A stretch of DNA of 64,000 bases, taken from positions 747,534,001-747,598,000 of the forward strand of contig NW_027362764.1 in NCBI RefSeq assembly GCF_046119375.1, written 5' to 3'. Numbering within the stretch: position 1 is the stretch's first letter; each line of letters opens with the position of its first letter. The position numbers and the translations under genes were made by a program. Positions 1 to 57,500 of the stretch are shown here, piece by piece. The notes below the pieces were generated by a model. That model made no database searches, was not told the DNA's origin, and saw nothing but the letters and a program-made list of their open reading frames with translations. The stretch comes from Phyllobates terribilis. Lineage: Eukaryota.

Positions 1-312
1 GGTCCCCGTGCCACCGGGACTGTGATAAAATTCAATATGCAGCACGGATGGGGCTTTATTAGAGACCATCAGACCCCCGGCGACGTCTTTGTAACTCGCA
101 GAGACGTAGAAAGCCATCTGCCGGAGGGACACAGAGGTCGTGACCTGTATGTAGGGGACGAGGTCACCTTCACCCGGCACAAGTGTGCCAAAGGACCCTA
201 CGCCCTCCATGTGCATCGCCTGATGGAGGAGGAGCTGCGGTGTGAGGAGGAGCAAGAGGACCCGGACTGGTCTGAAGAATCTAAAGAAGGAGCAGGAGGA
301 CGCCGTCGTTGA
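1..312 (+). CDS. 3' end of the cold-shock-domain ORF of an LTR element (5' part lies outside the window)
   Basis: Frame is open from base 1: GPRATGTVIKFNMQHGWGFIRDHQTPGDVFVTRRDVESHLPEGHRGRDLYVGDEVTF...GPYALHVHRL. This matches the CSD pattern (GTV..FN, RNP1 GWGFI, RNP2 DVFV) and is followed by an acidic tail. Paralogous to 48769-49089. Confidence 0.85.
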   Translation, partial: GPRATGTVIKFNMQHGWGFIRDHQTPGDVFVTRRDVESHLPEGHRGRDLYVGDEVTFTRHKCAKGPYALHVHRLMEEELRCEEEQEDPDWSEESKEGAGGRRR

Positions 313-2017
313 AGTACGGTAGAGAGAGACTGTACATAGTTACCCGTCAGGGTATAAGAACTGTTCTAGTTAAAATATAGTCCCCGTTGGGACCAGCCAA
401 TTGAACTGAATCCCGTGTGTCCCTATTCCCACTGACCGAGGACTGAGAGCGGTCAATCCTCCCTAATACCTGGCCGAGGACTGAGAGCGGCCATATTTCC
501 CTTGTATATAGTTGCGCTTCCTAAAGCGCCCCCTACCGGTTTTATAGGAAACTGTTTTCTTCCAAGAGAGACTGTCGCACCTTACCCGGTCACAAGTTGC
601 ACCGTGGCCGGAGGAACAAGAATGTTATTTATGAAAAGTTTTATATGAAAAGTTTGATAGCTGATAAAATATATGAATATGTTGATGTTTATGAAAAAAA
701 AAAAAAAATTGTATGTTTTGATGTTTTTATATCTTACAGCCCGAGGACGTGCTGTGGTTTACCAGGGGGAAATGTAGCACCCTGAGGATTCGGCTGTTAC
801 AGGGGTATTGCACCTCAACCCAGAGGTGTGATATTCCACTCCCGGGTAAGGATGGAGTGTGGAACTGAGCTCAGTTAGCTGCATGCACTACACACATCCC
901 ATTTCCGAGGGACAGACCGATGGTACTCCCACCAGTTTATGTGCAGGTACGACAGTGTCTGTTCCTGGCTGGAGTGGGAGGGGGGTGGAACATCCCAGTA
1001 GTGTAGGGGCAGATAGGGGGAGCAGTCTGGGTAATGCTAGGAGCTCATTGGGTGCTGGTCACCTGAGCTCACACATAGAGGGAGTATATAAGGTGGGAAC
1101 CATCTTAGGACAGGGTCTTTTGTAGAGTGAGTCAGTCTGTCAGAGTGTAACCTGAGGAGCAGAGCAGAGAAGCTCAGCCAGGAGGGCTGACAGGGAGTTG
1201 TGGTTCCGGCTGGGCCCAGCTCCAAGGCCAAGAGAGAGAGAGGAGTCGGAAGGACCCAGAGAAAACAAGCAGGAACCCCAAGACCCCAGAATACAAACAA
1301 CAGGGTGAAGGGTTGGCACCTAGGGTACCGGATCCCAAGCTGGCAGAGAGAAAAGCACACCTTAGCCAGAGACCGGAGGTCGTGGGCAGGATCTGCCACG
1401 ACCCTCACCAAATCCACCAGGAAGGCAGACCAAGTATAGGGTCAGGGAACCCAGAGGAGGTGTACCCACCAAGAGACCCGAGGGAGCCGGACATAGGTGG
1501 ATCCCTGGTGGGAACGGCCAGAAGAGAGGGAAAGTCAGACAGGAGCTCAGGACCACGCTCCAGAACTGCCTGGGGGTTAGCCGAGTCCAGGACCTGGTGG
1601 ACGCAGCACGGCTCGGGTGGTCGCTTCAGGCCAGAGTGACCATAAGAACACCCATAAGTAAAAACCCCTGAACTGCACAGCCCGACTCTGAGTCTTCTTG
1701 CTGATTCATCCTGCACCTTCACAACCACCATCCTCTACATCTGACCCCCTGAGGCTATACCCCTCCCGTTGGGGGTTATACTACCAAAGCTGCACACATA
1801 CCAACAGCCTCAGCGGACCCTGCTGCAGCGGCGGCCTTTTGACCGCAAATCAACGGGTGGCGTAGTCGACACAAAGAACTCTAATAACATCTGTAGGACT
1901 GCCACACACTGAGTTTGACACCCTGGGCACGGACCGGGTCACAGCCACTCGGAGACTACAACCCCCATCTGATCCGGCTCCGGGTATCCCTAACAACATG
2001 GCCCAGGGGGCGCGTCA
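1..2017 (+). mobile_element. CSD-encoding LTR element, copy 1 (3' part; 3' LTR 773-2017)
   Basis: 3' UTR nearly identical to 49090-49558. PPT AGGGGGAA precedes an LTR running TGTAGCA...GCGCGTCA (1245 bp). TATATAA at 1085. Confidence 0.9.
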
Positions 2018-20204: not shown

Positions 20205-21422
20205 TGACGCGCCCCCTGGGCCATATTCTTTAGGGGAATACCCGGAGCCGGATCAGATGGGGGTGGTAGTCTCCGAGTGGCTGTGACCCGGTCCGTGCCC
20301 AGGGTGTCAAGCTCAGTGTATGTGGCAGTCCTACAGATGTTACAAAGTTCGTTATGTCGACTACGCCACCCGTTGGATTGCGGTCACTACGGCCGCCGCT
20401 GCAGCAGGGTCCGCTGAGGCTGATGGTGTTGGTGCAGCTTTAGATAGTATAACCCCCAACGGGAGGGGTATGGCCTCAGGGGGTCAGGTGCAGAGGATGG
20501 GGGTTGTGGTGGTGCAGCGTAGATGATAATTAAAGACAGAGTCGGGTTGTGCAGTTCAGGGTGTTTACTTACTGCAGATATTCCGGTCACTCCGGCCTTG
20601 AGTGACCACCCGAGCCGTGCTGCGTCCACCAGGTCCTGGATTCAGCCAACCCCCAAGCAAGTCCGGAGCGTGTCCCTGAGCCCTCCTTCTTGTCCTTTCT
20701 TCTGGCCGTCCCCACCAGGGATCCACCTAGGTCCAGCTCCCTCGGGCCTTCTGTTGGGAGACCCTTGGCCTTGGGTTCCCTGACCCTACACGTGGTTTGC
20801 CTTCAGGGTGGATGTGGTGGGTGGCCGTGGCAGATTCTGCCCACGGCCTCCGGTCTCTGGCTGAGGTATGCTTTAGCCCCCACCAGTTTGGGATCCGGTA
20901 CCCTGTTGCCAACTCTTCACCCTAGGGTTGTACTTGGGTTCTCAGAGTTCCTTCTGTCTTCCCCTCTCTGGGTCTTTCTTGTTCTCCTCTCTCACTCTCT
21001 CTGGGCCTTGGGCTGCTCTGCTCCTCTGCTTTCTTCCTCTGACTTCTCTGCAAAGACTGGCTGACTGACTGACTGACTGACCCTGATCTTAGATGGTGCC
21101 CACCTTAAATACTCCCTCTATGTGTGAGCTCAGGTGACCAGCACCCAATGAGCTCCTAACTTTACCCAGGCTGCACCCCCTCTCTGCCCCTACACTACTG
21201 GGATGTACCACCCCCCTCCCACTCCAGCCAGGAACAGACTCGGTCGTACCTGCACATTTCTAAGTGGGAGTACCGTTGGTCTGTTCCTCGGAAATGGGAT
21301 GTGTGTAGTGCATGCAGCTTTCTGAGCTCAGATCCACACTCCATCCTTACCCGGGAGTGGAATACCACACCTCTGGTTGAGGTGCAATACCCCTGTAGCA
21401 GCCGAATCCTCAGGGTGCTACA
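20205..21422 (-). mobile_element. Solo LTR, CSD-element family (subfamily A)
   Basis: Reverse complement TGTAGCACCCTGAGG...GCGCGTCA; 4-bp TSD TAAC at 20201-20204 and 21423-21426. Confidence 0.95.
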
Positions 21423-23479: not shown

Positions 23480-25630
23480 ATTATACATTACATAGGGGAG
23501 ACCGAGACTGCTGTATACATCACATAGGAGACACTGGTACTGTGACATAGACATCACAGGAGACATGGGGCTGCGGCATAGAAATCAAAGGAGACATGGG
23601 GCTGCGGAAAAGAAATCACAGGAGACATGGGGCTGCGGAAAAGACATCACAGGAGACATGGGGCTGTGTTATACACATAACAGGAGACATGGGGCTGTGG
23701 CATAGACATCACAGGAGACATGGGGCTGCGGCACAGACATCACAGGAGACATGGGGCTGTGGCATATACATCACAGGAGACATGGGGCTGTGGCATATAC
23801 ATCACAAGAGACATGGGGCTGCGGCATAGATGTGAGACGCTCGCAGCCCTACCCTGGGAAGATGGGGGGATACTTGGAGCCGGGTCAGATGTTTGGTGGG
23901 GTTGTAGCCGTAGCCGTCACATTAAAAAGGGTGGTACGGACTATCAGGGTTGAGTGGTTGCTATCGACTACGCCACCTGTGGTACCTGGTGAAGGCCACC
24001 AGCGCTGCTGCAGTCCTCTGAGGCGGGGTGTTGTGGCAGCCGACGTTGATACTACTCCCCACAGGCGGAGCAGGGCCTCAGGGCAGAGACGAGGACGGAG
24101 GGAGTCGTAGTGGAGGAGGTCTGGTGCTCTGCGATGCGGTGCAGAAATAAAGAGTCCAGAGGCCATAGGGGTTGACTTCCAGGGTTTTTACTCACGGCAG
24201 AGCATGCAGCTGCAAGGATTTTCCCTGATCCTCACAGAGTTCTGCGGTCACCAGGAATGGGGGTCCGACAACCTCCGAGTAATTCAAGTGCTTGATCAGG
24301 ACCCCGCACCAGAGTGTTCCTAGACTTCAGACTGAGTCCTCTCCTGTCTGTGTGTGTAGAAAGGCCGGGTCTCCCTCTGGACTACGCTCAGAACAAGGGT
24401 ACGGGTGGCGACTCCGCTCCTTCCGTTACCCGGTGGGATCCTCTGTGCCTGCCGGGCTTCCCTGACTAGGACGTAGAGTAGCAAAGTCAGGTGTCGGGGG
24501 CCGGTACCCCTCTTGCAGCCGGAATCCCTCTGACTAGGCCAGAATAGCGAGCACAGGTGGCGTATACCGCTCCATCTGCATCCCCCTGGGATCCTTTTGC
24601 GATGGACCTTGACCGGGATGAGACAGCCGTTAACTCAAACCCGCTCCTCGACTCAAGGCCAGAGTACGAGGACCGTGTCTCCATCAACTGCAGGTTCACA
24701 CAGAAAGCCACATTCAGTGATGAAGATCACAATCAAAAGACCATGAGCCCAAGATGGCTGTTTATTAAATCTGAATTATTAAGTGTAACCTAAATGTGCG
24801 TCCTCCACCCTCACCCTCTACATGGTTCCCCCTAACTTTTGGTTCCCCAGTCTCCCATTATCCCGGGAGGGGCAGCACACTGGTGCCTATTAGCCCCCCC
24901 TATCGGTGGAAGAAGTGTGGTGTTGGATGTAGAGGTGGGGTCCTGACCATTGCACCGTTCTTACCTCGAAGGAGGGATACCACACCCCATTGAAGAGGTG
25001 CAGCATCCCTGTGGCGGTCGAACCCTCAGGGGCGCCACATAGACATCACAGGAAACATAGGGCTGTAGCATAGACATTAGAGGAGACATGGGGCTCTGGC
25101 ATAGACATCGCAGGAGACATGGGGCTGCGGCATAGACATCACAGGAGACATGGGGCTGTGGCATATACATCACAAGAGACATGGAGCTGCGGCATAGACA
25201 TCACAGGAAACAGGGCTGTAGCATAGACATTAGAGGAGACATGGGGCTGTGGCATAGACATTAGAGGAGACATGGGGCTGTGGCATAGACATTAAAGGAG
25301 ACATGGCTATGGTATAGACATCACAGGAGACATGGAGCTGGGGCATAGACATTACAGGACACACCGGGGTGTGGCATAGACATCACAGGAGACATGCCGC
25401 TGCGGCATAGACATCACAGGAGACATAAAGCTGCAGTATAGACATCACAGGAGACATGGGGCTGCGGTATAGACATCACAGGAGATACTGAGGTGGCGGC
25501 ATATACATCACAGGAGACATGGGGCTGCTGCATAGACATCACAAGAGACATGAAGCTGCAGTATAGACATCACAGGAGACATGAAGCTGCAGTATGGACA
25601 TCAAAGGAAATACTGGGGCTGCGGCATATA
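23480..25630. repeat. 31-bp minisatellite (CATAGACATCACAGGAGACATGGGGCTGCGG)n, split by the solo LTR at 23831-25039
   Basis: Direct reading; the array resumes on both sides of the LTR and briefly after the Tc1 at 27281. Confidence 0.9.
23831..25039 (-). mobile_element. Solo LTR, related subfamily B
   Basis: Reverse complement TGTGGCGCCCCTGAGG...GCGTCTCACA; TSD TAGA at 23827-23830 and 25040-25043. Confidence 0.9.
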
Positions 25631-27720: not shown

Positions 27721-28989
27721 TGTGACGCTCACAGCCCTCACCCTGGGAAGTGGGGTTACTCGGAGCCGGGTCAGATGTTGGGGGCTGCAGTCGTGGCCCG
27801 GACCCGGTCCGTGCCCAGGGCGGTCACATAAAAGATTTGATGGGCTTTCAGGGTTGAGTGGTATTTTTACGACTACGCCACCTACGGTTCCCGGTGATGG
27901 ACACCGGCGCTGTTTCAGTCCACTGAGGCCGGTGTTACGGAAAGCTAAGATGGGACGGCTCCCCGCAGGCGGAGCAGGCCTCAGGGCAGTGTGAGGAGGG
28001 AATCGTGGGTGCAGTGCCGCGCAGGAAATAACAGGCTGAAGCGGATTGTGAAGTCATCCAGGGTTTTTACTCACATTCAGATGAACTTTAGCCGCAAAGC
28101 TTCCCTCTGCTCCTCGCGGCATGCTGCGGCCACCAGGAAGGGTGTCCAGCACTTTCCAGATAAATCAGGAGCACCTGTCGAGACCCCTCTGGTGTGTGTT
28201 CCTCTCCTAGGTGAGTTCTCCCACTAAGTCTTCACTTGACTGTTTGTGTGGTTAGAACTAGGTGTAAGGCCGGGTCCCACTGAATAAAACGCAGGTAGAG
28301 AGCTACAGGTGGCGTATGCCGCTCCGTCCGTATCCCTCCTGGGATCCACTAAGCCTCCGGGATTCTCTGACTGAGACGTGAAGTAGCAAAGTCAGATATC
28401 GGGGGCCGGTCACCCCTCTTGCAGCAGGAATCCCTCTGACTATGCCAGAGTAAGAAATACAGGTGGCGTATGCCGCTCCGTCCGTATTCACCAGGGATCC
28501 TTTTGCCTGTGGAGCTTGTCTCCTCTACTCCCCTCCATGCCTTCTTAGGTAGGGACCATGACCGGGTAGAGGCAGTGGTTAACTCTGACCCGCTCCTCGC
28601 CTCAAGGCCAGAGAACGAGGACCGTGTATCTTCAATAGGCTGCAGGTTCTAACAGAAGGCCACAATCAGTGATGAAGATCACAATCAAAGACCTTGAACC
28701 TAAGATGGCTGTAGATTAAATATGAATGGGTAAGTGTACCCTAAAAGTGTGATTTCCACCCTCACCAACTACATGGTTCCCCCTATCTTTTGGTTCCCCC
28801 CATCTCCTATATCCCGGGACGAGGCAGCACCCTGGTGCATTTAGGCCCCCTACAGGACAGGAGTGGTGTAGTGTTGAATGATGAAGTAGGGTCCTGAGAA
28901 GTGCTCCATCCTTACCTGGAAGAGGAGATACCACACCTCAAACTGAGGTGCAGTACCCCTGTGGCGACTGAACCCTCAGGGGCGCCACA
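27721..28989 (-). mobile_element. Solo LTR, related subfamily B
   Basis: Reverse complement TGTGGCGCCCCTGAGG...GCGTCACA; TSD GAAG at 27717-27720 and 28990-28993. Confidence 0.92.
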
Positions 28990-33164: not shown

Positions 33165-34985
33165 CTCTCGTTGGATGCTGAGAAAGCATTCCATAGAGTC
33201 TCCTGGCACGCCATATATGATTCTCTTAAAAAGCTTGGGGTAGGGGTCTAGGGGACCCTTTTATAGCCAAAATCACGGCCCTGTATCACAATACGTCACC
33301 TAGGCTGAAGATAAATGGAACTGTAGCACCCTGAGGGCTCGGTTGCTACAGAGGTATTGCACCTCACCCAGAGGTGTGATATCTCACTCTCAGGTAAGGA
33401 TGGAGTATGGATCAGGACCCGACACCTGCATGCATTACACCACATTGCCATGGGGCAGGGCGACCAATATGCCTCTGAGATGGGCACGACAGTCCCTGTC
33501 CCTGGCTGGAGTGGGGGGAGGGAACACTGAGGAAGGGGAACCCTGTAGTGCAGGAGCAGGGAGGAAGCAGTTCCTGGGTGCATTGAGAAGGGAGTATAAA
33601 AGGTGGGCACCGTCTTAGTTCAGTGCAGAGAAGTCTGAGCAGAAGTGGCAGGGAGCAGGGGCTCTGCATGAGCTCTGCTCCGGAGGCGGGCCTAGTAACA
33701 GAGGCCCAGGCCTGGAAGAGGGAGAAGGAAGGAAGAGGAGCAGAGAAGGCTCCAGGAACGAGGAATGAAGGGATCCCAGGGGTGCGGACGGGCGAGTCAC
33801 CACCGCACGCCCGAATCCACCTGCGTGGAGGGGTCAGGCCAAAGGGGGAGACCGGTCCCTGAAACTAGTGGAGTCAGGAAACGACCCTCAGCTAGAAACC
33901 GGAGGCTGTGACATTTTATGTGGCGCAGCCCCTCGCTACACCCGCTAGGAAGGCACCACATAGGGTCAGGGAAACTAGCGCCAAGTTTACCAAGAGGAGG
34001 CCCGAGGCAGCCGGACAGAAGGGTTGGTAAGAAAGGCCAGACAAAGGACACACAAAGGGGGTCCTGTGAAGCGCTCCAAAGTTATCTGGGAGTTGTCTGA
34101 GCCCCTCACCTGGTGAGCACAGTACGACGTGGGCAGCCGTTACCTGCAGACGTGGTCTGGATAATAAGAACTGTGAGTAAAGGCCCTGGACTGCATCACT
34201 GACTCCGTGTCGTTACTGCTGCTGCCCTGCACCATCACCCCCATCCTCCGCATACACTGCCCTGAGGCTATACTCCTCCCGTGGGGAGTTATGCTACGCT
34301 CTGCTGCACCCACAACACCAGCCTCAGCGGTCTGCCCTGCAGCGGCGGTTCACTCTGACCGCAATCCACGGGTGGCGTAGTCGGACATTTAAACATCAAA
34401 ACCACATAAATAGTTCCGCCACTGGTTTGACCACCCTGAGCCACGGAACCGGGTCGCCGCCACGAAGACTACAACCACCAGCATCCACCAAAAAGGGTCC
34501 GGCTCCGGGTGTCCCAAGGCCCAGGGGGTGCATCAGAACATTTTCATCACCTTTCACAATCACCAATGGGACAAGGCAGGGATGTCCTCTGTCCCCTCTC
34601 TTATACATCCTAGTGACGGAGCACCTGCTCTCATCAATTCGCCATAACCCCAATATTAGGTGGATTGAGGTGGGAGGCACCGAGTACAAGTGCTCTCTAT
34701 TTGCTGATGATGTCCTAGTATATATCACTCAATCACATATATCCATCCATGCTGTTATGGCTGAAATAGATCACTTTGTTACATGGTCAAATTTTAAAAT
34801 CAATGCAGCGAAGTCTGAGGCCCTCGATGTCTCCCTCCCCAAATCCATATAGGATTCCAACCAGTCCAACTTTCCCTTTGCCTGGCCCTCACAGGGTATC
34901 AAATACTTAGGAATTCCTATTCATAGAGACCTCTCCCATCTATGTTATCTTAATTTTGGGCCCTTTATTGAACAACTCCATACAG
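33165..34985 (+). pseudogene. L1/Tx1-type reverse transcriptase fragment, interrupted by a solo LTR
   Basis: SLDAEKAFHRVSW...LKINGT|FSSPFTITNGTRQGCPLSPLLY...LFADDVL...KYLGI. Confidence 0.85.
33322..34535 (+). mobile_element. Solo LTR, CSD-element-related (A-like)
   Basis: TGTAGCACCCTGAGG...GGGGGTGCATCA; TSD GAAC at 33318-33321 and 34536-34539; removing it restores the L1 RT frame. Confidence 0.92.
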
Positions 34986-36420: not shown

Positions 36421-36554
36421 CGAAAAGTTTGGGTGATCTAAGAGTGTGGCAACCCAGTAGTCATGATTACTTCGAATTCTGACAATATGAGGGTCATGTT
36501 GCAGGTATTGCAGCAAGAAGGCACTTATGTGTCTTGCGCATCTCGGAGCCCCAA

Positions 36555-36820: not shown

Positions 36821-36866
36821 AAGCTTAAAACGGTTGGTAGGGTGATTTTAACCAATCATCAAGCTT

Positions 36867-40567: not shown

Positions 40568-40679
40568 TTTGGTGGTTAACTAATTCACAACTCTGGAGTT
40601 GTTTGCACAAAAAAACAATGGATGGGAACCGAGCAGAGCTGAGTGTCCAAACTGTGGTATTAGGCCAAAACTATTGGCT

Positions 40680-44128: not shown

Positions 44129-45563
44129 ATTGGAGGGTTTATCTCATCATCATGAAAGCTTAAAATTGCAAAAACCAAGCAACTTTGTAATTTGCCTTTT
44201 ATTTCAAATTTTCTCCGTTCTTAAGAACAGAGTGATATTTTAATTCACTTGTTCGATACACAAGTTACTGGCTACCCAGAGCTGCCAGTCTCCTTTGCAA
44301 GAGCCCTATGTTTACAAACTCTTGTCTATACAGCATGTAAGCGCTGCTCTAAAGCTGTCCCGATCACTGGATCCGGTCAGCCCCATTCCCCCTGCACTAT
44401 TATGATGCTGCAAAGGCAAAACAACCTCAGCTGGCATCATGGGGGAGTGAACAGTTCTGGCTGGCGGTGTAGCCATGCCACTGGACCAAATTGTCAATCA
44501 TCTTGAAAATCCATATTGAAACAAACCCTTTAAAGGGGTATTTTTACAGTAAACGCTAAGGAATGCCAATCACCCAGCCTTGTTCAGTGATTGGTGGATG
44601 GACATAGTAACATAGTAACATAGTAACATAGTTTTTCAGGTTGAAGGAAGACTAAGTCCATCTAGTTCAACCCATAGCCTAACATGTTGATCCAGAGGAA
44701 GGCAAAAAAAACCCATGTGGCAAACACTAAGCTCCACATTGGGGAAAAAAATTCCTTCCCGACTCCATACGACAATCAGACTAGTTCCCTGGATCAACGC
44801 CCTATAAAGGAATCTAGTATATATAACCTGTAATATTATACTTTTCAAGAAAGGCATCCATGCCCTTCTTAAATGTTAGTAGTGAATCACTCATTACAAC
44901 ATCATGCGGCAGAGAGCTCCATAGTCTCACTGCTCTTACAGTAAAGAATCCCCGTCTGTGATTATGATTAAACCTTCTTTCCTCCAGACATAGAAGATGC
45001 CCCCTTGTCCCCGTCTCTGGCCTCAGAGTAAAAAAATCAGTAGAAAGGTCTTTGTACTGTCCCCTCATATACTTGTACATAGTAATAAGATCACCCCTAA
45101 GCCTTCTTTTTTCCACAGTAAATAACCCCAAGTGTAATAACCTGTCTTGGTATTGCAGACCCCCCAGTCCTCTAATAACCTTGGTCGCTCTTCTCTGCAC
45201 CCGCTCTAGTTCAGCTATGTCTTTCTTATACACCGGAGACCAGAACTGTACACAGTATTCTAAGTGTGGTCGCACTAGTGACTTGTATAGAGGTAAAATG
45301 ATGTTCTCCTCATGAGCATCTATGCCTCTTTTAATGCATCCCATTATTTTATTTGCCTTTGCAGCAGCTGCCTGACACTGGCCACTAAACGTGAGCTTGT
45401 CGTCCACAAATACACCCAGGTCTTTTTCAGTTACAGTTTTGCCCAGTGTTTTACAATTAAGCATATAATTATACATTTTATTTCCTCTGCCCAAGTGCAT
45501 TACCTTACATTTATCCCCATTAAAGCTCATTTGCCATTTATCAGCCCAAGCTTCTAGTTTACA

Positions 45564-45570
45564 TACAGTA
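45564..45570. other. Tc1/mariner excision footprint TACAGTA
   Basis: Deleting 5 bp restores ILQEDLCKLEAWADKWQMSFN in frame. TA-CAG-TA is the canonical footprint of CAG-terminated Tc1 elements. Confidence 0.75.
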
Positions 45571-47082
45571 GATCCTCCTGTAATATAAAATTGTCCTCCT
45601 CTGTATTGATTACCCTGCAGAGTTTAGTGCCATCTGCAAATAGTGAAATACTACTCTGTATGCCCCCTACAAGGTCATTAATAAATATGTTAAAAAGAAG
45701 GGGGCCCAATGCTGACCCCTGTGGTACCCCACTGTTAACTGAGACCCAGTCTGATTGTTTTCCATTAATAACCACCCTTTGTTTCCTATCACTGAGCCAA
45801 TTCTTAACCCACATACATATGTAGCACCCTGAGGATTCGGCTGCTACAGGGGTATTGCACCTCAACCCAGAGGTGTGATATTCCACTCCCGGGTAAGGAT
45901 GGAGTGTGGAACTGAGCTCAGTTAGCTGCATGCACTACACACATCCCATTTCCGAGGAACAGACCGATGGTACTCCCACTAGAGAAATGTGCAGGTACAA
46001 CAGTGTCTGTTCCTGGCTGGAGTGGGAGGGGGGTGGAACATCCCAGTAGTGTAGGGGCAGATAGGGGGAGCAGCCTGGGTAAAGCTAGGAGCTCATTGGG
46101 TGCTGGTCACCTGAGCTCACACATAGAGGGAGTATATAAGGTGGGCACCATCTTAGATCAGGGTCAGTCAGTGAGACATCAGTCTTTGCAGAGGAGTCTT
46201 TTGTAGAAGGCTGGTCAGTCTGTCAGTCTTTTGCAGAGCAGTGGAGGAAAGCAGAGGAGCAGAGCAGCCCCAAGGCCAAGAGTGAGAGAGGAGTTTGAAA
46301 GACCCAGAGGGGGAGAAAGAAGGAACTCCAAGAGCCCAAATTAGACCAGAGGGTGAAGAGTTGGCAACAGGGTACCGGATCCCAAGCTGGCAGAGGCTAC
46401 AGCACACCTTAGCCAGGAACCGGAGGTCGTGGGCAGGATTGATCTGCCACGATCACCCACTAAATCCACCCGGAAGGCAGACCACGAATAGGGTCAGGGA
46501 ACCCAGAGACAAGGGTTTACCACCAAGAGGCCCGAGGGAGCCGGACATAGGTGGATCCCTGGTGGGGAAGGCCAGAGAAGAGGACAGGACAGAAAGGGAG
46601 CTCAGAACCACGCTCCAGAACTACTTGGGGGTTGGCCGAGTCCAGGACCTGGTGGACGCAGCGCAGCTCGGGTGGTCACTCAAGGCCGGAGTGACCGGTA
46701 CAAGAACAGCAGTAAGTAAACAAACCCTGAACTGCACAGCCCGACTCTGACTCTCATTACCATCCTCACTGCACCTCCACAACCACCATCCTCTGCACCT
46801 GACCCCCTGAGGCTATACCCCTCCCGTTGGGGGTTATACTACCTGGGCTGCACAAACACCATCAGCCTCAGCGGACCCTGCTGCAGCGGCGGCCGTAGTG
46901 ACCGCAATTCAACGGGTGGCGTAGTCGACATAAAGAACTTTAGTAACATCAGTAAGGACTGCCACACACTGAGCTTGACACCCTGGGCATGGACCGGGTC
47001 ACAGCCACTCGGAGACTACAACCCCCATCTGATCCGGCTCCGGGTATCCCCAACAACACTGGCCCAGGGGGCGCGTCAACTT

Positions 47083-47100
47083 TGGCGTAGTCGGCAGGAT
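47083..47100 (+). promoter_or_regulatory. Primer-binding site for tRNA-Ser
   Basis: TGGCGTAGTCGGCAGGAT is the complement of the vertebrate tRNA-Ser(AGA/TGA) 3' end ATCCTGCCGACTACG-CCA; it lies 4 nt after the 5' LTR. Confidence 0.9.
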
Positions 47101-47259
47101 TACGTGCCCGCAACAACCGGGTACTGCGTGCCTGAAGAAAAGTTCATCGTTACCTTAAAAAGAAGTCTCCTGCCGGTTCCGGAGGGTCCCCGCCATCGGG
47201 CCCCATCACAGGTCGTTTCCCGCCGGTTGTCCGCCATTTGCAGCTTTTTCCCGCCATCC

Positions 47260-49089
47260 ATGGAGTTTCCCGCCACTGGGAGACGATTCCCGCCATTTCC
47301 GAAGATTTCCCGCCTTGGGGGAGCGGACGCCATTATGGGCGTGCCAGAGGGTGGCAAGAGGCCACCTCCCATCGTGGGCCAGGTCGAAGAATGGCGCCAA
47401 AAGCGGAAACCGCGCCCACCAACAGAGACTGTGATGCTGGAAGTGTCCATCAGCGTAAGAGAACTGCCCCTGGAACTGAAGTTGCCCCGGGACCACCCTC
47501 GATGTGGGCGGAGACAGAAGAAGAGAACAAAGATGGGTGTCGCCTGGAGCAGTCTGGAGAGAGCGCACCCGGAGACAAGACGTCTGGAAGAGTGTCCAGA
47601 GAGAGCCTACCCGGAGATGGAGGGAGAGCCAGGCAGCACCGACCCAGCGGTCAGGAGCCTGATGCGGGCCGCCACTCCAGGCAGCACCGACCCAGTGGTC
47701 AGGAGCCTGTTGCAGGTCGCCACTCCAGAAGGCCTGCTGGAGATCCTAGCACAGCTCCCCCGAGACCGGGAGTGTGCACAGACCGCGCTGGAGGGCCTCG
47801 CACAGAGGTTGGCCCGGGTGCAACGAGAGACGTTGGCGGAGTGGAGCCGAGAGATGGCCCAGCAGACCGAGACTCGTCAGCGGAGCACGCCGCCAGAGAC
47901 GAGGAGACAGACCGCCTCTGAGGATGGCGCAGGAGGACTGAAGGCCGGAGACGGCGCCGAGAAGGGAGCCGAACGAATGGAGGCAGGTAAAGGGGACGTC
48001 ACTACCCCGAGCCGGGAAACCGCGTGCCTGCCCCAGCTCCCCGTCGCAGAGCCCGAAGTACCCCCTGCCGTGCCCGTCGCTGCAACGTCACCGCCGCAGA
48101 CTAGGCCTCAAACGGAAGCCGCGACCCCTGTGACGTCACACGCCTCGACCCCGAGCGTGGCCAAGCAGGAAGTACCATCGGCCTGGTCGCAAGGCCTAGT
48201 ACCCCCGGGCGCCGCAATACCAACAGCGCCCCCTACCTCCGCGGAGCCCCCGGCCTGGTCGCAGGGCCAAGTAACACGGGGCGCCGCCGTTCTGACGGTG
48301 CCCTTTACTTTCAAGGTGCCCCAGGCCTGGTCGCAAGGCCTGGTTAACCCGGGCGCCGCTACCACCACGGCGCCCATAACACCTAAAGTACCGCACCTGG
48401 GTGAGGACCTGTTCGCCCAGCATACGTGCCCGGATGGGCAGCCCTTCGTATGGCCCCAGGAATACATCCAGCTGGAGCTGCAAAAAGCAAGGGCCATGTG
48501 CGAACCCCTGATCCCGGCTCCAAAGCCCATAAAGAGGATCTCGCCCCCGCTAGAAGAGACCCAGTTTGAGTGGGATCCCACCGGAGAAGACCTCATGGGG
48601 TTCACTCAGGAGACTCGGGCAGCCGCAGCGGAGCGTGCAGAGTGCTGCCGCCAGCAGCTCGAGGTCTTTGAGAGGGAGCGGAGAGAGAGGCGGGTCCGGG
48701 AACAACAAGCCCAAATAAGGAGCGCGGAGCAGAAGAGCCGGACCAGGAGAAACCCCCGTGCAGCGCATGGTCCCCGTACCATCGGGACTGTGATAAAGTT
48801 CAATCTGCAGCATGGGTGGGGTTTCATCAGGGATCACCGCACCCCAGGCGACGTCTTCGTGACCAGGAGAGACGTTGAGTCCCACCTACCGGAGGGACAC
48901 AGAGGTCGTGACCTGTATTTAGGGGACGAGGTCACCTTCACCCGGCACAAGTGTGCCAAAGGACCCTACGCCCTCCATGTGCATCGCCTGACGGAGGAGG
49001 AGCTGCGGTGTGAGGAGGAGCAAGAGGACCCGGACGGGTCTGAAACTGAAACTGTCCACAAAGAAAGAGCAGGAGGACGCCGTCGTTGA
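47260..49089 (+). CDS. LTR-element protein with C-terminal cold-shock domain (609 aa; 584 aa if ATG 47335 is used)
   Basis: Uninterrupted frame; helical/coiled segments, Pro/Ala/Thr-rich repeats, CSD at ~48784-48990, acidic tail. Confidence 0.85.
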   Translation: MEFPATGRRFPPFPKISRLGGADAIMGVPEGGKRPPPIVGQVEEWRQKRKPRPPTETVMLEVSISVRELPLELKLPRDHPRCGRRQKKRTKMGVAWSSLERAHPETRRLEECPERAYPEMEGEPGSTDPAVRSLMRAATPGSTDPVVRSLLQVATPEGLLEILAQLPRDRECAQTALEGLAQRLARVQRETLAEWSREMAQQTETRQRSTPPETRRQTASEDGAGGLKAGDGAEKGAERMEAGKGDVTTPSRETACLPQLPVAEPEVPPAVPVAATSPPQTRPQTEAATPVTSHASTPSVAKQEVPSAWSQGLVPPGAAIPTAPPTSAEPPAWSQGQVTRGAAVLTVPFTFKVPQAWSQGLVNPGAATTTAPITPKVPHLGEDLFAQHTCPDGQPFVWPQEYIQLELQKARAMCEPLIPAPKPIKRISPPLEETQFEWDPTGEDLMGFTQETRAAAAERAECCRQQLEVFERERRERRVREQQAQIRSAEQKSRTRRNPRAAHGPRTIGTVIKFNLQHGWGFIRDHRTPGDVFVTRRDVESHLPEGHRGRDLYLGDEVTFTRHKCAKGPYALHVHRLTEEELRCEEEQEDPDGSETETVHKERAGGRRR

Positions 49090-52000
49090 GTACGGTAGAG
49101 AAGAGACTGTACATAGTTACCCGTCAGGGTATAAGAACTGTTACTGCTGCTAGTTAAAATATAGTCCCCGTTGGGACCAGCAAATTGAACTGTTAATCCC
49201 GTGTGTCCCTATTCCCACTGACCGAGGACTGAGAGCGGTCAATCCTCCCTAATACCTGGCCGAGGACTGAGAGCGGCCATATCCCCTTGTATATAGTTGC
49301 GCTTCCTAAAGCGCCCCCTACCGGTTTTATAGGAAACTGTTTTATTCCAAGAGAGACTGTCGCACTTTACCCGGTCACAAGTTGCACCGTGACCGGAGGA
49401 ACCAGAAACAAGAATGTTTATATGAAAAGTTTATTGCTGCTGATGATGTTTTATAAGTTTTATATGTTTATGTTTATGAAAAAAAAAAATTGTATGTTTT
49501 GGATGTTATTGTTTATATCTTACAGCCCGAGGACGTGCTGTGATTTACCAGGGGGGAATGTAGCACCCTGAGGATTCGGCTGCTACAGGGGTATTGCACC
49601 TCAACCCAGAGGTGTGATATTCCACTCCCGGGTAAGGATGGAGTGTGGAACTGAGCTCAGTTAGCTGCATGCACTACACACATCCCATTTCCGAGGAACA
49701 GACCGATGGTACTCCCACTAGAGAAATGTGCAGGTACAACAGTGTCTGTTCCTGGCTGGAGTGGGAGGGGGGTGGAACATCCCAGTAGTGTAGGGGCAGA
49801 TAGGGGGAGCAGCCTGGGTAAAGCTAGGAGCTCATTGGGTGCTGGTCACCTGAGCTCACACATAGAGGGAGTATATAAGGTGGGCACCATCTTAGATCAG
49901 GGTCAGTCAGTGAGACATCAGTCTTTGCAGAGGAGTCTTTTGTAGAAGGCTGGTCAGTCTGTCAGTCTTTTACAGAGCAGTGGAGGAAAGCAGAGGAGCA
50001 GAGCAGCCCCAAGGCCAAGAGTGAGAGAGGAGTTTGAAAGACCCAGAGGGGGAGAAAGAAGGAACTCCAAGAGCCCAAATTAGACCAGAGGGTGAAGAGT
50101 TGGCAACAGGGTACCGGATCCCAAGCTGGCAGAGGCTACAGCACACCTTAGCCAGGAACCGGAGGTCGTGGGCAGGATTGATCTGCCACGATCACCCACT
50201 AAATCCACCCGGAAGGCAGACCACGAATAGGGTCAGGGAACCCAGAGACAAGGGTTTACCACCAAGAGGCCCGAGGGAGCCGGACATAGGTGGATCCCTG
50301 GTGGGGAAGGCCAGAGAAGAGGACAGGACAGAAAGGGAGCTCAGAACCACGCTCCAGAACTACTTGGGGGTTGGCCGAGTCCAGGACCTGGTGGACGCAG
50401 CGCGGCTCGGGTGGTCACTCAAGGCCGGAGTGACCGGTACAAGAACAGCAGTAAGTAAACAAACCCTGAACTGCACAGCCCGACTCTGACTCTCATTACC
50501 ATCCTCACTGCACCTCCACAACCACCATCCTCTGCACCTGACCCCCTGAGGCTATACCCCTCCCGTTGGGGGTTATACTACCTGGGCTGCACAAACACCA
50601 TCAGCCTCAGCGGACCCTGCTGCAGCGGCGGCCGTAGTGACCGCAATTCAACGGGTGGCGTAGTCGACATAAAGAACTTTAGTAACATCAGTAAGGACTG
50701 CCACACACTGAGCTTGACACCCTGGGCACGGACCGGGTCACAGCCACTCGGAGACTACAACCCCCATCTGATCCGGCTCCGGGTATCCCCAACAACACTG
50801 GCCCAGGGGGCGCGTCACATATATTTTCCCCTATCCCCATTGTTCTCATTTTATGTATCAACCTTTTGTGTGGAACCGTATCAAAAGCTTTTGAAAAGTC
50901 CATATACACAACATCCACTGCATTTCCTAGGCCCAGTCCCGAACTTGCCTCCTCATAAAAACTGATCAGATTAGTTTGACAGGAACGGTCCCTCGTAAAC
51001 CCATGTTGATATTGGGTCATGAGGTTATTCTTCTTCAGATACTCTAGTATAGCATCTCTTAGGAAACCCTCCAGGATTTTACCCACAGTAGAGGTTAAGC
51101 TTACCGGCCTATAATTTCCAAGTTCAGTTTTTGTCCCCTTTTTGAATATTGGCACCACATTTGCTATACGCCAGTCCTGTGGTACAGACCCTGTTATTAT
51201 GGAATCTTTAAAGATTAAAAATAATGGTCTATCTATAATGTTACTTAATTCCTGCAGTACTTGCAGGTGTACCCCATCTGGGCCTGGGGATTTGTCAACT
51301 TTAGTGATTTTTAGACGCCGCCGTACTTCCAGCTGGGTTAAGCAAGTGACATTTAATGGAGAATTTTTGTTATCACTAATCATGTTTTCTGTCATGCGAT
51401 TTTCTTGTGTAAATACGGTTGAAAAAAAATCATTTAGCATATTGGCTTTTTCCTCATCCTCATCCACCATTTCACCCAGACTATTTTTAAGGGGGCCAAC
51501 ACTATCATTTTTTAGTTTTTTACTAATTATGTAGTTAAAGAATATTTTGGGGTTATTTTTACTTTCTCTGGCAATGATTCTCTCTGCCTCAATCTTTGCT
51601 GCCTTGATTTGTTTTTTACATACTTTATTTAATTTTCTATATTTATTTAATGCCTCATCACTACCTATTTGCTTTAGTTCTATAAATGCTTTCTTTTTGT
51701 CACTTATTGCGCCCCTTACAGCTCTATTTATCCATAGTGGTTTCCTCCTATTTCTAGCATGTTTATTCCCAAAGGGTATATATTGTGCACAGGTCCTATT
51801 CAGGATGTTAATAAATGTCTCCCATTTGCTTTGTGTAGCTTTATGTCTCAGGATATTGTCCCAGTTTATTGCACTAAGATCATCTCTCAACCGTTGGAAA
51901 TTAGCCTTCCTGAAGTTTAGTGTCCTTGTAACCCCTCTACTACACATCTTAGTAAAGGTTACATGAAAACGTATTATTTTGTGATCACTATTACCCAAGT

Positions 52001-52965
52001 GACCATCAACTCGTATATTTGATATGCGGTCTGGCCAATTGGTTAATATTAGGTCTAGCAGTGCCCCCCTTCTTGTTGGGTCCTGAACCAGTTGTGAAAG
52101 GTAATTGTCTCTCATAGTTGTCAAAAACCTATTACCTTTGCTTGAACTACATGTTTCTGTCCCCCAATGTATTTCAGGGTAGTTGAAGTCTCCCATAATA
52201 ATGACTTCTCCTTGAGTCGCTGCTTCATCTATTTGCTTTACGAGGATATTCTCCGCTACTTCCATTATTTTTGGAGACTTGTAACAAACCCCTATCAGTA
52301 ATTTATATTTTTTTCCCCCTCCCCTTATCTCCGTCCACAGGGACTCTACATTTTCATTAAATTCACATATATCCTCCCGCAAGACAGGTTTTAAGGATGA
52401 TTTTTCATATAAACACACCCCCCTCCCTCGCTTGTTTGTACGGTCATTTCTGAACAGACTATAGCCCTGTAAATTAACTGCCCAGTCATGGCTCACGTCC
52501 AGCCATGTCTCAGATATCCCCACCATGTCATAATTATTTTACAACAAAATTAATTCGAATTCCTCCATTTTGTTGGTGAGGCTTCTGGCATTAGTGTACA
52601 TGCATTTTATGTATCTCTCTGTACCTCTATTCCTTCTTACTTTATTGACTGTTCTAACCCCACCCCCAATTTCTTTATTTGTGCCCAGGTCACTATCTGC
52701 ACTATCTTCCCCACCTATAAAATGAATACCCCCCCCCCAAATCCCTAGTTTAAACACTCCTCCAACCTTCTAGCCATTTTCTCCCCCAGCACAGCTGCAC
52801 CCTCCCCATTAAGGTGCAGCCGGTCCCTAGCGTAGAGTCTGTAGCCAACTGAGAAGTCGGCCCAGTTCTCCAGGAACCCAAAATCCCTCCTTCCTACACC
52901 AGCTCTTGAGCCACTTATTTATCTCCCTAATCTCCCGTTGCCTCTCTGGCGTGGCACGTGGTACC

Positions 52966-52998
<33 letters not shown>

Positions 52999-53581
52999 CT
53001 TGCTTTCAGCTTGCAGCCTAATTCCCTGAAATCATCTTTAAGGACCACCCACCTACCTTTAACTTTGTCATTTGTGCCAATGTGCACCATGACCGCTGGG
53101 TCCTCATCAGCCCCTCCCAGTAATCTGTCAACCCGATCAGCGATATGCCGGACTCGAGCTGTTAGAACCTTGCTCTTAGGTTTTTTCCTTTGCTGGTCAC
53201 ATGACCTTGTTGGCCTATTTAATCCTGCTCCGCCCTTCTGGCTTTGCTGGACTTCATTGTATAACTACTTTCTAGCTAGCCTGTGCTCTGTATCTAACTC
53301 TGTTAGTTTGCTTGGTCTACGGACCTCTATGTTCTATATATTTTGTTTGTTCGTCTGTCTGCTACTATTTCTGTTAGGAGGTGTCCCATTTTCCTCCCAG
53401 TCCTTAGTACTTGTAGGGATTCCTTCCCCACATCTATAGGTCTCCGTACAGACTAGCTTAGGACTTTAGCAGGTCTGATCGCAGGATCAGGTTCCCTGTT
53501 ACATCGTAGGGATTCAGCTGAGTTCTATCGTAGGGACAGATCTCCTCTCTTTCCTTAGCTCTGGTAGCAGAACATAACAGT

Positions 53582-53590
53582 AAGTCCAGC
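53582..53590 (+). promoter_or_regulatory. Putative self-priming PBS
   Basis: No TGG-type tRNA PBS. AAGTCCAGC is complementary to GCTGGACTT at 53246-53254, 30 nt after TATTTAA (53216). Confidence 0.65.
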
Positions 53591-53627
53591 CTGCAAATTC
53601 TCTAAGGAAAGATTTTTCTGTTCCATC

Positions 53628-54503
53628 ATGGTGTCGGTTCAGGATTTGGCTCATCGCCTGCAGGGACTCTCTCTGGAGGTGGCCGAGCTCCGTCAGCACG
53701 TGAGTAACTGTCCTGGAGCACATTTCTTGGAGCCTAAGGTATGTTTGCCGGATTTATTTTTTGGTGAACACCGAGAATTTTTTTCATTTAAAAATGCTTG
53801 CTTATTGTATTTTCGTTTGAGACCCAAGTCCTCTGGGGATGAATCCCAGCGCATAGGGTTCATAATGTCACTTTTGCGCAAAGAGCCTCAGGAGTGGGTC
53901 TTTTCTTTGCAACCTAGTGATACATGCTTCAGATCAGTGGATAGTTTTTTTTTCTGCTTTGGGACTATTATATGATGATCCTGACCGTGTCGCATCAGCT
54001 GAGACTGAGTTGAGACGTTTGAAACAGGGATCAGGTAATGTGGAAAAATATTGTACTCATTTCCGTCGATGGTCTACTCAAACAGGGTGGAACGATTCTG
54101 CTCTGAAAAGTCTATTTCTTGCTGGGCTCAATGAAAGGGTTAAAGACCTGCTAATTGCTTATCCTACACCTGAAGATTTGCAACAGGCTATGCAATTAGC
54201 TATACGGGTGGATAGGAGACTGCGTGCAAGGGTTAATGAGAGCAAATCCTCTGCTATGTCAGTTTCTGGTTATGAGAATGTGGTGAACCGATGGAGATTG
54301 GATCGGTGGCACCTCGCTCTCAAGAAAAAGACCGTCGATTTTCTGAAGGCTTGTGTTTCTATTGCGGAAAATCTGGTCATTTGATTAAAGGCTGTGAGCT
54401 TCGTATGAAGAAAGAAAAAAAAATGGTCAGTCATGCCCGTATTGCCTGTTTAAATTCCAAGGGTGTATTCTTAGCTGCTTCCACGATTGCTCAGGAAAAA
54501 TGA
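53628..54503 (+). pseudogene. Chromovirus gag with CCHC knuckle, frameshifted
   Basis: Retrotransposon gag core (LKQG..VEKY..F) and CFYCGKSGHLIKGC, spread over three frames. Confidence 0.85.
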
Positions 54504-57500
54504 ATGGAATTTCGGGTGTTTGTTGATTGTGGGTCTACTCTGAATGTAATTGATGGGGGATTCTTGGAAAGACTCAATTTAAAACCCGAACCTTTATCAT
54601 CCCCCATTGCTGTGGTTTCTGTGGATGGTTCCCCTTTGAAGAATATTACTCTCAAGGTCTGTGAATTTCCTCTCACTATTAATGGTGTTCACCATGAGAA
54701 ATTGGATTTGGTAGTTTTGAATAACTTGCCTTCTTCAGTAATATTGGGATTGCCCTGGTTAAAATTTCACAATCCTGTACTGGATTGGTCTACCAGTGAA
54801 ATTAAATCCTGGAGCCATAAATGTTATGACAAGTGTTGTAACGGGCGTATTGCAGCTGTGGATAGGGGAGAATTGCCTGTTCCTATTCAGGATTTTTGGA
54901 GAGTTTTTTCTGAGAAGGAATCGCAGGTTTTGCCTCCCCATAGAGACTATGATTGTTCTATTGAATTTGTCCCTGGAGCGACTCTTCCTAAAAGTCGTTT
55001 ATTTAACCTTACTATTCCTGAGAGGAAGGCTTTGGAGGAATACATACAGACAAGTTTGGCCGCCGGTCACATTAGGCCCTCTAAGTCTCCTGTGGCGGTT
55101 GGATTTTTTTTTGTAAAAAAAAAGGACGGCGGTTTACGTCCTTGTCTGGATTTTTGTGAGATTAACAAAATTACTGTACGCAATCCTTACCCACTGCCAT
55201 TGATTCCTGATCTGTTTAACCAGTTAATGGGGGCCAAGTGGTTCTCTAAAATTGACCTTAAGGGGGCATACAATCTGTTGCGCATGAAGGAGGGTGACGA
55301 ATGGAAGACTGCTTTTAACACTCCTGTGGGTCATTTTGAGAACCTGGTTATGCCTTTTGGTCTTACTAATGCTCCTGCATTTTTTCAGAATCTTATTAAT
55401 GACATCCTTAGACCTTTGATCGGCAAAAATGTGGTTGTGTATTTGGATGACATTTTGATTTATTCGCCGGATCTGGAGTCTCATTGGCGGAGCGTACGTG
55501 AGGTATTACAGTTATTAATGGACAATTCGCTTTTTGCTAAGCTGGAGAAATGTGAGTTCGCTGTACAGAGAATTAGTTTTTTGGGTTACATTAATTCCAG
55601 CGAAGGTTTTGAGATGGACCCGGTTAAAGTTCAAGCTGTACAGGAATGGCCTAGGCCTATTGGTTTGAAATCGATACAGAGGTTTTTGGGTTTCGCCAAT
55701 TATTACAGAAAATTCATAAAAAAAATTTCTAGTATTGTCAAACCTCTGACCGATCTCACCAGGAAAGGTGCTGATGCGGTTCAGTGGTCTTCTGAGGCCA
55801 TTGAAGCTTTTGTGTATCTCAAGGAGAGGTTCACCTCTGCTCCCATCCTTATGCAGCCTGATGTGACTAAGCCGTTTTTGGTTGAGGTTGATGCTTCCTC
55901 TGTGGGGGTTGGCGCAGTATTGTCTCAGGATAACGGGGATGGATTACATCCCTGTGCCTTTTTTTCAAAAAAATTTTCGGAGACTGAACTGAATTACGAT
56001 ATTGGTAATCGGGAATTATTGGCTATTAAACTCGCATTTGAACACTGGCGCCACTTCTTGGAAGGTGCGGAATTTCCCGTTCAGGTTCTTACGGATCATA
56101 AAAATCTGATATATCTTGATGCTGCCAAGCGCCTGAATGCCCGTCAGGCTAGGTGGGCACTGTTTTTCTCGCGGTTTAATTTCTCCGTTACTTACATCCC
56201 TGGTACTAAGAATGTTAAGGCGGATGCCTTGTCTCGCAGTTTTTCTCCCATAGTCGGTGCTGAGAAAGAGGAGAACATTTTACAAGAAGGTGTTGTGATA
56301 GCTGCTTTGGACTCCGTTTTGGAAGATGAGATTCTTAAAGCACAGGAGAATGCCCCATCTAACACTCCTCATGGGAGGTTGTTTGTGCCTGGGACCTTTA
56401 GGAGAGATTTGTTGTTGAGTGTCACGAATCTCGGTTGGCAGGTCATCCCGGAATCTCTGAGACCAAGAGACTGGTGGGTCGCAGTTTTTGGTGGCCTGGA
56501 TGGCAGAAGGAAGTCATTAAGTGGGTGCGTCAATGTACTATATGTGCTAGATCTAAGTCCTCACATACTCCTGCTGCGGGGTTGCTTTGTCCTTTGGAGG
56601 TTCCCAGTGCTCCTTGGACACATTTGGCTATGGACTTTATAACTGACCTTCCCCCCTCTGAGGGTTTTACTGTCATCTGGGTGGTCGTGGACCGTTTTAG
56701 CAAGATGTGTCACTTGGTTCCCTTCGTCAAACTGCCCTGCGCTAAAACTCTCGCTAAGGCCTTTGTCAAGGAAATTGTCAGACTTCATGGCGTTCCTACT
56801 GACATTGTTTCTGATAGGGGTCCTCAGTTCGTGGCTCGTTTTTGGCGTGCCTTTTGTGACAGGTTGGGAGTTCATTTGTCGTTCTCGTCCGGATATCATC
56901 ATGAATCTAATGGCCAGACAGAAAGGAAAAACCAGGATGTTGAGCAGTTCTTGCGTTGTTTTGTGGCAGACAATCAAGAGGGGTGGTCTGAGTTTCTGCC
57001 ACTTGCTGAATTTGCTCTGAACAATCATACATCTTCTTCTGCTGGTTGTTCGCCTTTTTTTTGTTGTTCTGGGAGACATCCGTCGTTTGGGTCGTTCTCC
57101 AAGTTGGGATCTGCCGTGCCTGAGGAGGAGAATTTTTCCGGTGATTTGGAGAGAGTTTGGACGGATGTGCGTGGTAATCTTCAGGAGGCCAACAGAAAAT
57201 CTAAAGACTACTTTGATAGGAAACGACAGGAGGTTTTGTTCGCTGTTGGTGACATGGTCTGGTTGTCCTCTAGGAATCTACGGTTGAGGATTCCTTCTAT
57301 GAAATTGGGTCCCAAGTTTGTAAGGCCCTTTAAGGTGCTTCAGGTTGTCAACCAATCCGCTGTTAGGTTGGAGGTTCCTACCTCCTGGAGAATTAATCCG
57401 GTATTTCATGTCTCTCTGTTAAAAAAGCTGTTGTGTTGGATGGTGACGCCTCTGCCTCTGTTCCTCCGGTGGTGGAGGACGGGGAATATGAAATTTCTCG

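Follow-up and report, generated by a model that had tools for sequence, protein, structure and literature searches.

A high-copy poison-frog LTR element with the priming signals of a Gypsy partner encodes a single cold-shock-domain protein under purifying selection

The 64,000-nucleotide stretch of the Phyllobates terribilis genome analysed here (the window; assembly GCF_046119375.1, contig NW_027362764.1, positions 747,534,001 to 747,598,000 of the forward strand) contains a young long terminal repeat (LTR) element at 45820..50817, whose only open reading frame (ORF) encodes a protein ending in a cold-shock domain (CSD). A sequence-only reading of the window had proposed this element, with near-identical 1259-bp LTRs, a primer-binding site (PBS), a polypurine tract (PPT) and a 4-bp target-site duplication (TSD), and all of these parts were confirmed. 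The two LTRs (45820-47078 and 49559-50817) begin with TG, end with CA and differ by 3 substitutions with 0 gaps, the duplicated target is CATA and the PPT reads AGGGGGGAA. The PBS at 47083 can pair over 18-19 nt with the 3' end, CCA included, of tRNA-Ser(AGA) and tRNA-Ser(TGA), as given by tRNA genes of the same genome. The 5' LTR carries TATATAA at 46133 and, at 46715, AGTAAA, the likely poly(A) signal; among 13 sampled CSD copies the TATA motif is found in 11 and AGTAAA in all 13. The element interrupts ORF2 of a CR1-type long interspersed element (LINE) on the - strand, and the reverse transcriptase (RT) frame of the LINE continues on either side of the insertion. An Rfam scan of the element gave 0 matches. 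Four sequencing runs of uncertain type cover 30/30 bins and are uninformative on transcription, strand or level.

The ORF is 609 aa long when read from its first ATG. The interval 47260-49089, given earlier as the coding region, is indeed an open frame, but its first ATG was rejected as the start used by the family: the conserved Met is the second one, at 47335, which has the better Kozak context and yields 584 aa. In agreement with the earlier description of a lone ORF without gag, protease, RT or integrase motifs, CCHC, DTG/DSG and YxDD motifs are absent from the 609-aa ORF, and its sole Pfam match is the CSD at aa 509-575 (E 1.7e-7, 31.4 bits versus a cut-off of 27). Profile search and structure prediction, both proposed with the original CSD assignment, bear it out. 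AlphaFold, run on a 16-sequence alignment, predicts a 48-residue helix (model residues 75-122) followed by a five-stranded barrel (predicted local distance difference test, pLDDT, 85-93). The best Foldseek match of the CSD model is CspA (E 4e-7), with identities to known CSDs of about 30-35%. VIA-align superimposes it on CARHSP1 (Z 10.6, rmsd 3.3, 82 aligned) and Lin28A (Z 10.0, rmsd 2.2, 74 aligned), while a viral fold library returned just generic CSD/S1 matches. First matches in the ESM Atlas, at 0.76 and 0.85, are leads only. With a family profile YBX1 ranks at the top with 33 bits and a loop of Y-box length, and CspA follows with 32 bits; a Y-box donor of the CSD is plausible on this comparison, the two scores being tied. 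Identity to vertebrate YBX1/YBX2 is about 31-32%, short of the near-identity expected of a Y-box family member. The GWGF and DVFV motifs keep both core phenylalanines of the ribonucleoprotein (RNP) motifs in nearly all copies, and the new invariant CSD residues in the family are GW, D, H, GD, H and GxYA.

The N-terminal part of the protein is predicted to have less structure. A model of aa 26-217 has a mean pLDDT of 58 and two to three helices, and is predicted to be mostly disordered with one confident helical unit, the domain at aa 141-205 (pLDDT 86-93 across its helices). We found no capsid fold in this model. It had no Foldseek match at E<=0.001, where a known fold is still possible, and a sequence search of the PDB gave nothing below E 0.08. 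A complex prediction for self-pairing of the helical domain scored 0.01. Pfam contained no Gag family matching the ORF or any of 27 N-terminal members.

The element belongs to a very large family. In the 10.57-Gb genome, a 96-aa CSD query gave 150 scored matches, drawn from 37,500 candidates, and 150/150 were 100% identical. The exact codon pattern of one CSD peptide occurs in at least 10,173 genome copies (reversed control, 0), a floor given that this pattern fits just 3 of 13 sampled CSD copies. The junction between LTR end and PBS of the first of two tRNA-Ser classes (see below) occurs 50,686 times. When the sampled junctions are weighted by spacer type (among the first 100 listed, 79 and 21), the estimate is about 22,000 CSD-bearing copies (likely range 20,000-40,000), or 1-2% of the genome, an extrapolation based on the initial 15 Mb of one contig. 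We fetched 20 copies: 19 chosen from the 150 CSD matches, mostly with long frames, and a second copy that overlaps the window (L013). All have a common layout of about 5 kb, and their identity to the window copy is 86-97%. The LTR pairs of 19 differ by 1-8 mismatches, 18 have frames of at least 573 aa, and the TSDs comprise 15 perfect 4-bp repeats, 2 in tandem, 1 unresolved and 2 imperfect. Since the copies share a layout yet differ from one another, and have near-identical LTR pairs and long frames, many distinct lineages have inserted recently. Head-to-tail tandems with a common LTR (LTR-internal-LTR-internal-LTR) are frequent in this family and in its partner (L014, L024, L108, L133 and L062).

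A gag-pol partner with the same LTR termini and PBS, which the sequence-only reading had suggested seeking, was found in the form of a complete Gypsy element. Among 36 fetched LTR-end/PBS junctions (the first 20 with a 4-nt spacer and the first 16 with a 5-nt spacer), 18 belong to this Gypsy, 13 to CSD elements, 4 to family members without the CSD and 1 to a chimera. The partner is about 7.9 kb long and encodes a PNMA-type Gag with a CCHC knuckle, followed by protease, RT, RNase H and integrase (PR-RT-RH-IN). Its LTRs of about 1 kb are 98.3-99.9% identical within pairs and are flanked by 4-bp TSDs. Partner and CSD element have near-identical LTR termini, PBS, PPT and TSD length in common, and their sequence homology is confined to U5 and the leader (73-76%) and does not extend to U3 or the ORF. 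The final 270 nt or so of the window 5' LTR are 76-80% like the partner U5. The internal region compared with partner Gag or Pol by tblastn gave a best E of 0.85, and hhalign of the protein against partner Gag a probability of 0.35%. The partner Gag had no PDB sequence match, and its Gypsy clade is left unnamed here. Partner and CSD element also have a second PBS-like motif within U5, some 150-170 nt short of the LTR end. It was found in 35/36 class-1 elements, and the class-2 version or a near variant in 9/15; its sequence changes together with that of the true PBS between the tRNA-Ser classes, a pattern suggestive of a further contact with the tRNA during priming or RNA pairing. The element thus combines paired TG...CA LTRs and a TSD, a tRNA-directed PBS and a PPT with the lack of protease, RT, RNase H and integrase and with a partner that carries common cis signals, as expected of a non-autonomous LTR element. 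It very probably depends on this Gypsy as its helper, and we infer that the Gypsy mobilises it. Primer sites of this kind can mislead tRNA annotation: one with extended tRNA complementarity (L119) was miscalled a tRNA-Ala gene by ARAGORN, and of 12 loci first returned with the tRNA-end pattern 10 lacked a genuine tRNA-Ser gene, only L123 being genuine, so that tRNA counts are inflated.

A search with a distant relative revealed older CSD elements, with about 45-65% CSD identity, whose PBS matches tRNA-Ser(CGA). The corresponding junction occurs 2,594 times, and 15 fetched loci comprised 6 with gag-pol, 7 with a CSD, 1 chimera and 1 with neither. The whole ORF plan, from the N-terminal motif through the CSD, is kept in both classes down to about 30% identity. 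In a tree of U5 and leader sequences (31 rows, PBS left out), CSD elements cluster with partners of their own tRNA-Ser class (support 100/100). Within class 1, CSD copies are nested in separate partner subclades, L051 and L066 with partners L040/L050 (99/95), and L053 and L068 in the main partner group (100/99). The protein of L053 is nearest to that of L039 (88%), whereas its leader is 93% like that of a partner and 74% like that of L039. Chimeras with a partner gag start and a CSD-family 3' end occur in both PBS classes (L058 and L140). The L058 chimera, whose LTRs are 99.4% identical, consists of a partner LTR and gag start (96%), about 300 nt of CSD-family 3' end (81%), and a partner 3' untranslated region and LTR (97%). 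Template switching between co-packaged RNAs would be the simplest reading of the nesting and the chimeras, the alternative being recombination at the DNA level. Because CSD elements nest among partners and chimeras occur, the data point to particles shared by the two kinds of RNA.

To assess selection on the ORF, the ratio of nonsynonymous to synonymous substitution rates (dN/dS) was computed pairwise over 8 copies chosen without regard to CSD identity; the pairs are non-independent, and intervals come from column resampling. The CSD yielded 0.08 (95% bootstrap interval 0.04-0.15), followed by the FEWDP-helix region, the helical unit and the linker (Table 1), and the N-terminus at 0.68. The same method applied to 12 copies each of the partner genes gave 0.14 for Gag and 0.04 for RT, and wrong-frame controls of the CSD gave 1.97 and 2.61. 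Variable CSD columns were distributed over the codon positions as 20/13/59 of 73 (13 copies). Purifying selection on the CSD is thus strong and comparable to that on the partner gag. With this selection and at least 10,173 copies, the original proposal of a parasitic LTR family holds over that of a one-off deletion with a decaying ORF.

Table 1 Features of the CSD element and related sequences in the 64-kb window.
Feature	Coordinates	Strand	Remarks
Target-site duplication CATA	left 45816..45819, right 50818-50821	+	4-bp TSD
5' LTR	45820..47078	+	1259 bp, TG...CA
Second PBS-like motif inside U5	46914..46926	+	about 160 nt before LTR end
Primer-binding site, tRNA-Ser(AGA/TGA)	47083..47101	+	starts 4 nt after LTR
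Single ORF	47260..49089	+	609 aa from first ATG; family-conserved start 47335 (584 aa)
Conserved helical domain, aa 141-205	47680..47874	+	predicted short helix and long amphipathic helix; dN/dS 0.24
Pro/Ala/Thr-rich linker (44%)	47875..48384	+	three AWSQG repeats, variable length, likely disordered; dN/dS 0.51
FEWDPTGEDLMGF motif and predicted 48-residue charged helix leading into CSD	48565..48768	+	dN/dS 0.10
Cold-shock domain (PF00313)	48784..48984	+	five-stranded barrel; dN/dS 0.08
Polypurine tract AGGGGGGAA	49550..49558	+	identical in partner Gypsy
3' LTR	49559..50817	+	1259 bp
CR1-type LINE ORF2 (endonuclease, RT), split by the insertion	44814-45819 and 50818-52538	-	
Second full-length copy, 3' part	1..2017	+	CSD, 3' untranslated region, 3' LTR 773-2017
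Solo LTR, same family	20205..21422	-	85% identical, TSD GTTA
Solo LTR, older, related	33322..34535	+	TSD GAAC
Solo LTR, distantly related	27721..28989	-	TSD CTTC
Solo LTR, distantly related	23831..25039	-	TSD TCTA

Elsewhere in the window, the copy previously noted at 1-2017 proved to be the 3' part of the full element L013, the 5' part being located immediately upstream of the window; the LTRs of L013 are 3 mismatches apart, its TSD is CAGG and its frame is open. The four solo LTRs that had been listed as related are all real, each with a 4-bp TSD, but those at 27721-28989 and 23831-25039 are just distant relatives. A separate young Tf2-like Gypsy at 53159-58113 (421-bp LTRs 99.5% identical; pol PR-RT-RH-IN-SH3) was ruled out as the partner, its termini being unrelated. 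Tc1-type transposase frames, three of them of about 355 aa, and a hAT element with a BED finger account for 7021-8091, 22125-23189, 25859-26935, 35387-35992, 36867-40579 and 61984-63627. There are also several minisatellite arrays, with units of 31, 35, 93 and 110 nt.

The distribution of the protein was surveyed by a profile search of 1.84 billion representative proteins, for which the best 150 of 941 matches were listed and 10 of the 150 looked up. Among the best 150, the strongest single-domain matches are uncharacterised proteins of Phyllobates, Ranitomeya and Anomaloglossus, and most remaining rows are proteins with several matched stretches. Word-seeded searches added three further poison-frog gene models; the one started from the most distant relative, P0006, returned only P0006 itself. 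Among these matches, close named relatives come only from poison frogs, a weak absence elsewhere since annotated proteomes usually mask repeats. Three poison-frog gene models (P0155, P0156 and P0157) fuse the family CSD to R3HCC1, a Harbinger-type transposase and an MIF4G protein, and are either annotation artefacts or real exon capture. A host CSDE1 origin of the domain was rejected: the CSDE1-like sequences of the genome have no blastn match to the element, and CSDE1/Unr is not among the profile matches. The genome does contain intronless, partly duplicated CSDE1/Unr-like copies (L069-L074, contig C1, about 734.44 Mb), one frame of which enters LINE-like sequence; they are apparently retrocopies of a spliced gene with exons at L075-L076 (contig C2, about 702.8 Mb).

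The sequence-only reading knew of no described family of this kind, and none was found: a search of the full-text literature, with subscription journals, Repbase and Dfam outside its scope, returned no LTR element with a cold-shock domain. The family may have an unnamed consensus in Repbase or Dfam. Bhikhari and the mammalian MaLR are pol-less families with one ORF. They resemble the CSD element in being vertebrate LTR families, but theirs are ERV (endogenous retrovirus)-related and Gag-derived, whereas the partner of the CSD element is a Gypsy and its protein is non-Gag. Y-box proteins (YBX1/YBX2), LIN28, CARHSP1 and CspA have the same barrel as the element CSD, at about 30-35% identity and without its replacement of Trp and His (see below). 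Zebrafish Bhikhari-1/-2 (crestin) are described as encoding Gag-like products, the Bik Gags having developmental roles (PMC13269885). The Xenopus laevis elements 1A11 and Xretpos / lambda-olt 2-1 are reported as LTR elements with one ORF, no pol, tens to hundreds of copies and early-embryo transcription; the 1A11 protein is called Gag-like, Xretpos is suggested to use tRNA-Arg, and both were considered immobile (PMC4585706). These too are pol-less frog LTR elements with one ORF; as described there, they are set apart from the CSD element by its lack of Gag similarity, its CSD, its use of tRNA-Ser, its fresh insertions and its identified partner. The TR-GAG elements of plants are presented as apparently active, non-autonomous LTR elements that contain one ORF (PMC4350172), which in their case is Gag, in elements of less than 4 kb. 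Without Gag sequence similarity, the ORF of the CSD element falls outside this Gag-only group (TR-GAG, 1A11, Bhikhari, MaLR). TRIM/LARD elements are characterised as helper-dependent, retaining LTR, PBS and PPT, recombining and forming tandems and chimeras (bioRxiv 10.64898/2026.03.01.708851); they are defined as non-coding or as holding only gag/pol remnants, whereas the CSD family keeps an unrelated ORF of 584-609 aa under purifying selection. The phrase "cold shock" is absent from the main text of poison-frog and anuran genome papers (PMC6278860, PMC11152451, PMC12208295, PMC12822217). The known non-autonomous LTR elements that we found described are thus non-coding or Gag-keeping, whereas this family keeps a non-Gag, host-type RNA-binding domain.

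On balance, if only just, we favour a satellite copied by its helper, whose predicted RNA-binding CSD protein acts chiefly on the RNA that encodes it, which it stabilises and helps to package. The element has all the cis signals for reverse transcription and integration in common with a complete gag-pol Gypsy. Very probably, its RNA is taken into partner particles, where the same tRNA-Ser primes it and partner Pol copies and integrates it, and where template switching keeps renewing U5, PBS and leader from the partner. Purifying selection maintains the protein, most stringently the CSD and the helix before it, and the protein may act with cis preference, as a private Y-box-type chaperone that coats the newly made transcript, because a gene in a passenger RNA is selected solely if its carrier benefits. 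The coated transcript could then be stabilised or masked in the germ line and handed to partner Gag. LINE-1 ORF1p, which combines long helices with a single RNA-binding domain (an RNA recognition motif, RRM), acts in cis on its own RNA; this is an analogy only, LINE-1 being RRM-based, non-LTR and autonomous, and homology is not claimed. Host YB-1 is reported to stabilise the genomic RNA of human immunodeficiency virus (HIV) and murine leukaemia virus (MLV) and to raise particle output (PMC6040738), so a private Y-box-type copy could be useful. It is reasonably probable that the lineage acquired the CSD long ago, lost gag-pol or was without it from the start, and has followed one Gypsy helper after another across poison frogs by taking over their priming signals, with its own protein winning access to particles.

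Several observations weigh against this reading. Trp and His of CspB/YBX1 CSDs stack on bases; in the family alignment the binding-face Trp before the first-strand Phe is replaced by Lys and the RNP2 His by Thr/Asn, and nucleic-acid binding by the CSD may therefore be weak or altered. All samples were drawn from the first 30 Mb of one contig, the sequences behind the trees recombine, and the frame is unbroken in only 7 of 13 CSD copies sampled without selection for the CSD. Furthermore, family members without the CSD make up 4/17 in the junction sample. Two deletion junctions recur, at 272 and 79 sites, and the LTRs are at least 99.3% identical, i.e. young, in 11 of 12 fetched copies of the commoner one. 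In six of 13 deletion copies, identity is higher among themselves (95-97%) than with all sampled intact copies (89-95%), and these six may form a spreading cheater lineage. Since CSD-less copies are young and common, the CSD is not strictly needed in cis, and the protein therefore confers an advantage and is not essential for a single round. As to their origin, CSD-less copies form at short direct repeats, and splicing was rejected because the junctions sit in such repeats. A single deletion clade was also rejected, the commoner junction being spread over the family tree with 7 changes forced among 13 copies; this fits repeated loss from intact parents.

The same copies could ride along with a protein that acts in trans. 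One such model, which we consider unlikely, is that the protein interferes with the helper in the manner of satellite viruses, binding partner RNA (U5/leader) or Gag and tilting translation or packaging towards the satellite. U5, the leader and the second PBS-like motif are common to both RNAs, so one RNA-binding protein could recognise both, and CSD-family copies about match or exceed those of the partner (17 versus 18 of 36 junctions). However, partner copies are abundant and young, so that any suppression must be mild, and a purely trans effect accounts for a dN/dS of 0.08 less well than a cis effect. It is quite unlikely, too, that the protein counters silencing in trans by shielding transcripts from decay by PIWI-interacting RNAs (piRNAs) or other germ-line pathways, to the gain of satellite and partner alike. 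The joint growth of both families to tens of thousands of copies and the continued insertion of CSD-less copies would agree with this, as would the high Gypsy expression reported in poison-frog ova (PMC6278860), but a shared good should erode through cheaters, whereas intact lineages persist over synonymous divergences (dS) of 0.8-1.2, and no motif for a silencing-pathway partner was found in the protein. Of the three roles put forward in the sequence-only reading (nucleocapsid substitute, packaging competitor, and RNA-masking or anti-silencing factor), the nucleocapsid role is the weakest, because partner Gag has its own zinc knuckle and no capsid fold was found in the modelled N-terminal part (aa 26-217).

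The loss of Trp and His, the new invariant residues, which suggest a different surface, and the two long conserved helices would suit a CSD that is a protein-docking barrel without RNA binding, as in the non-canonical CSDs of Unr/CSDE1, and that serves as an adaptor to partner Gag or Pol. We regard this as improbable, given that both core phenylalanines are retained in nearly all copies, that basic residues replace the lost aromatics and that the best fold matches are canonical RNA-binding CSDs. Least probable is that the short element descends, by deletion, from an autonomous Gypsy carrying the CSD as an extra ORF, with selection inherited from the parent. Part of the leader does resemble the partner pre-gag region, and 6/18 class-1 partner loci were covered short of their 3' end. 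On the other hand, the CSD was present in 0/10 full-length partners read to the 3' LTR, in which pol ends about 350 nt before the LTR, none of the examined CSD loci has gag-pol between its LTRs, and a common layout of about 4.7-5.2 kb is found in all of the distinct young subfamilies, which are 75-95% identical.

If the satellite reading is true, the family would be to retrotransposons what satellite viruses with a single helper-exploiting protein are to viruses, and would make up 1-2% of a 10.6-Gb genome. It puts a name to some of the unclassified repeats that are reported to form a large fraction of poison-frog genomes (PMC11152451, PMC12208295), and the leakage of its copies into gene models is a warning for annotation. 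Intact elements, CSD-less copies, chimeras and two helper classes in one genome offer a natural high-copy system for cis preference and cheating in LTR retrotransposition. Selection on a non-Gag domain as strong as that on the helper capsid means that a passenger RNA gains from a protein of its own making.

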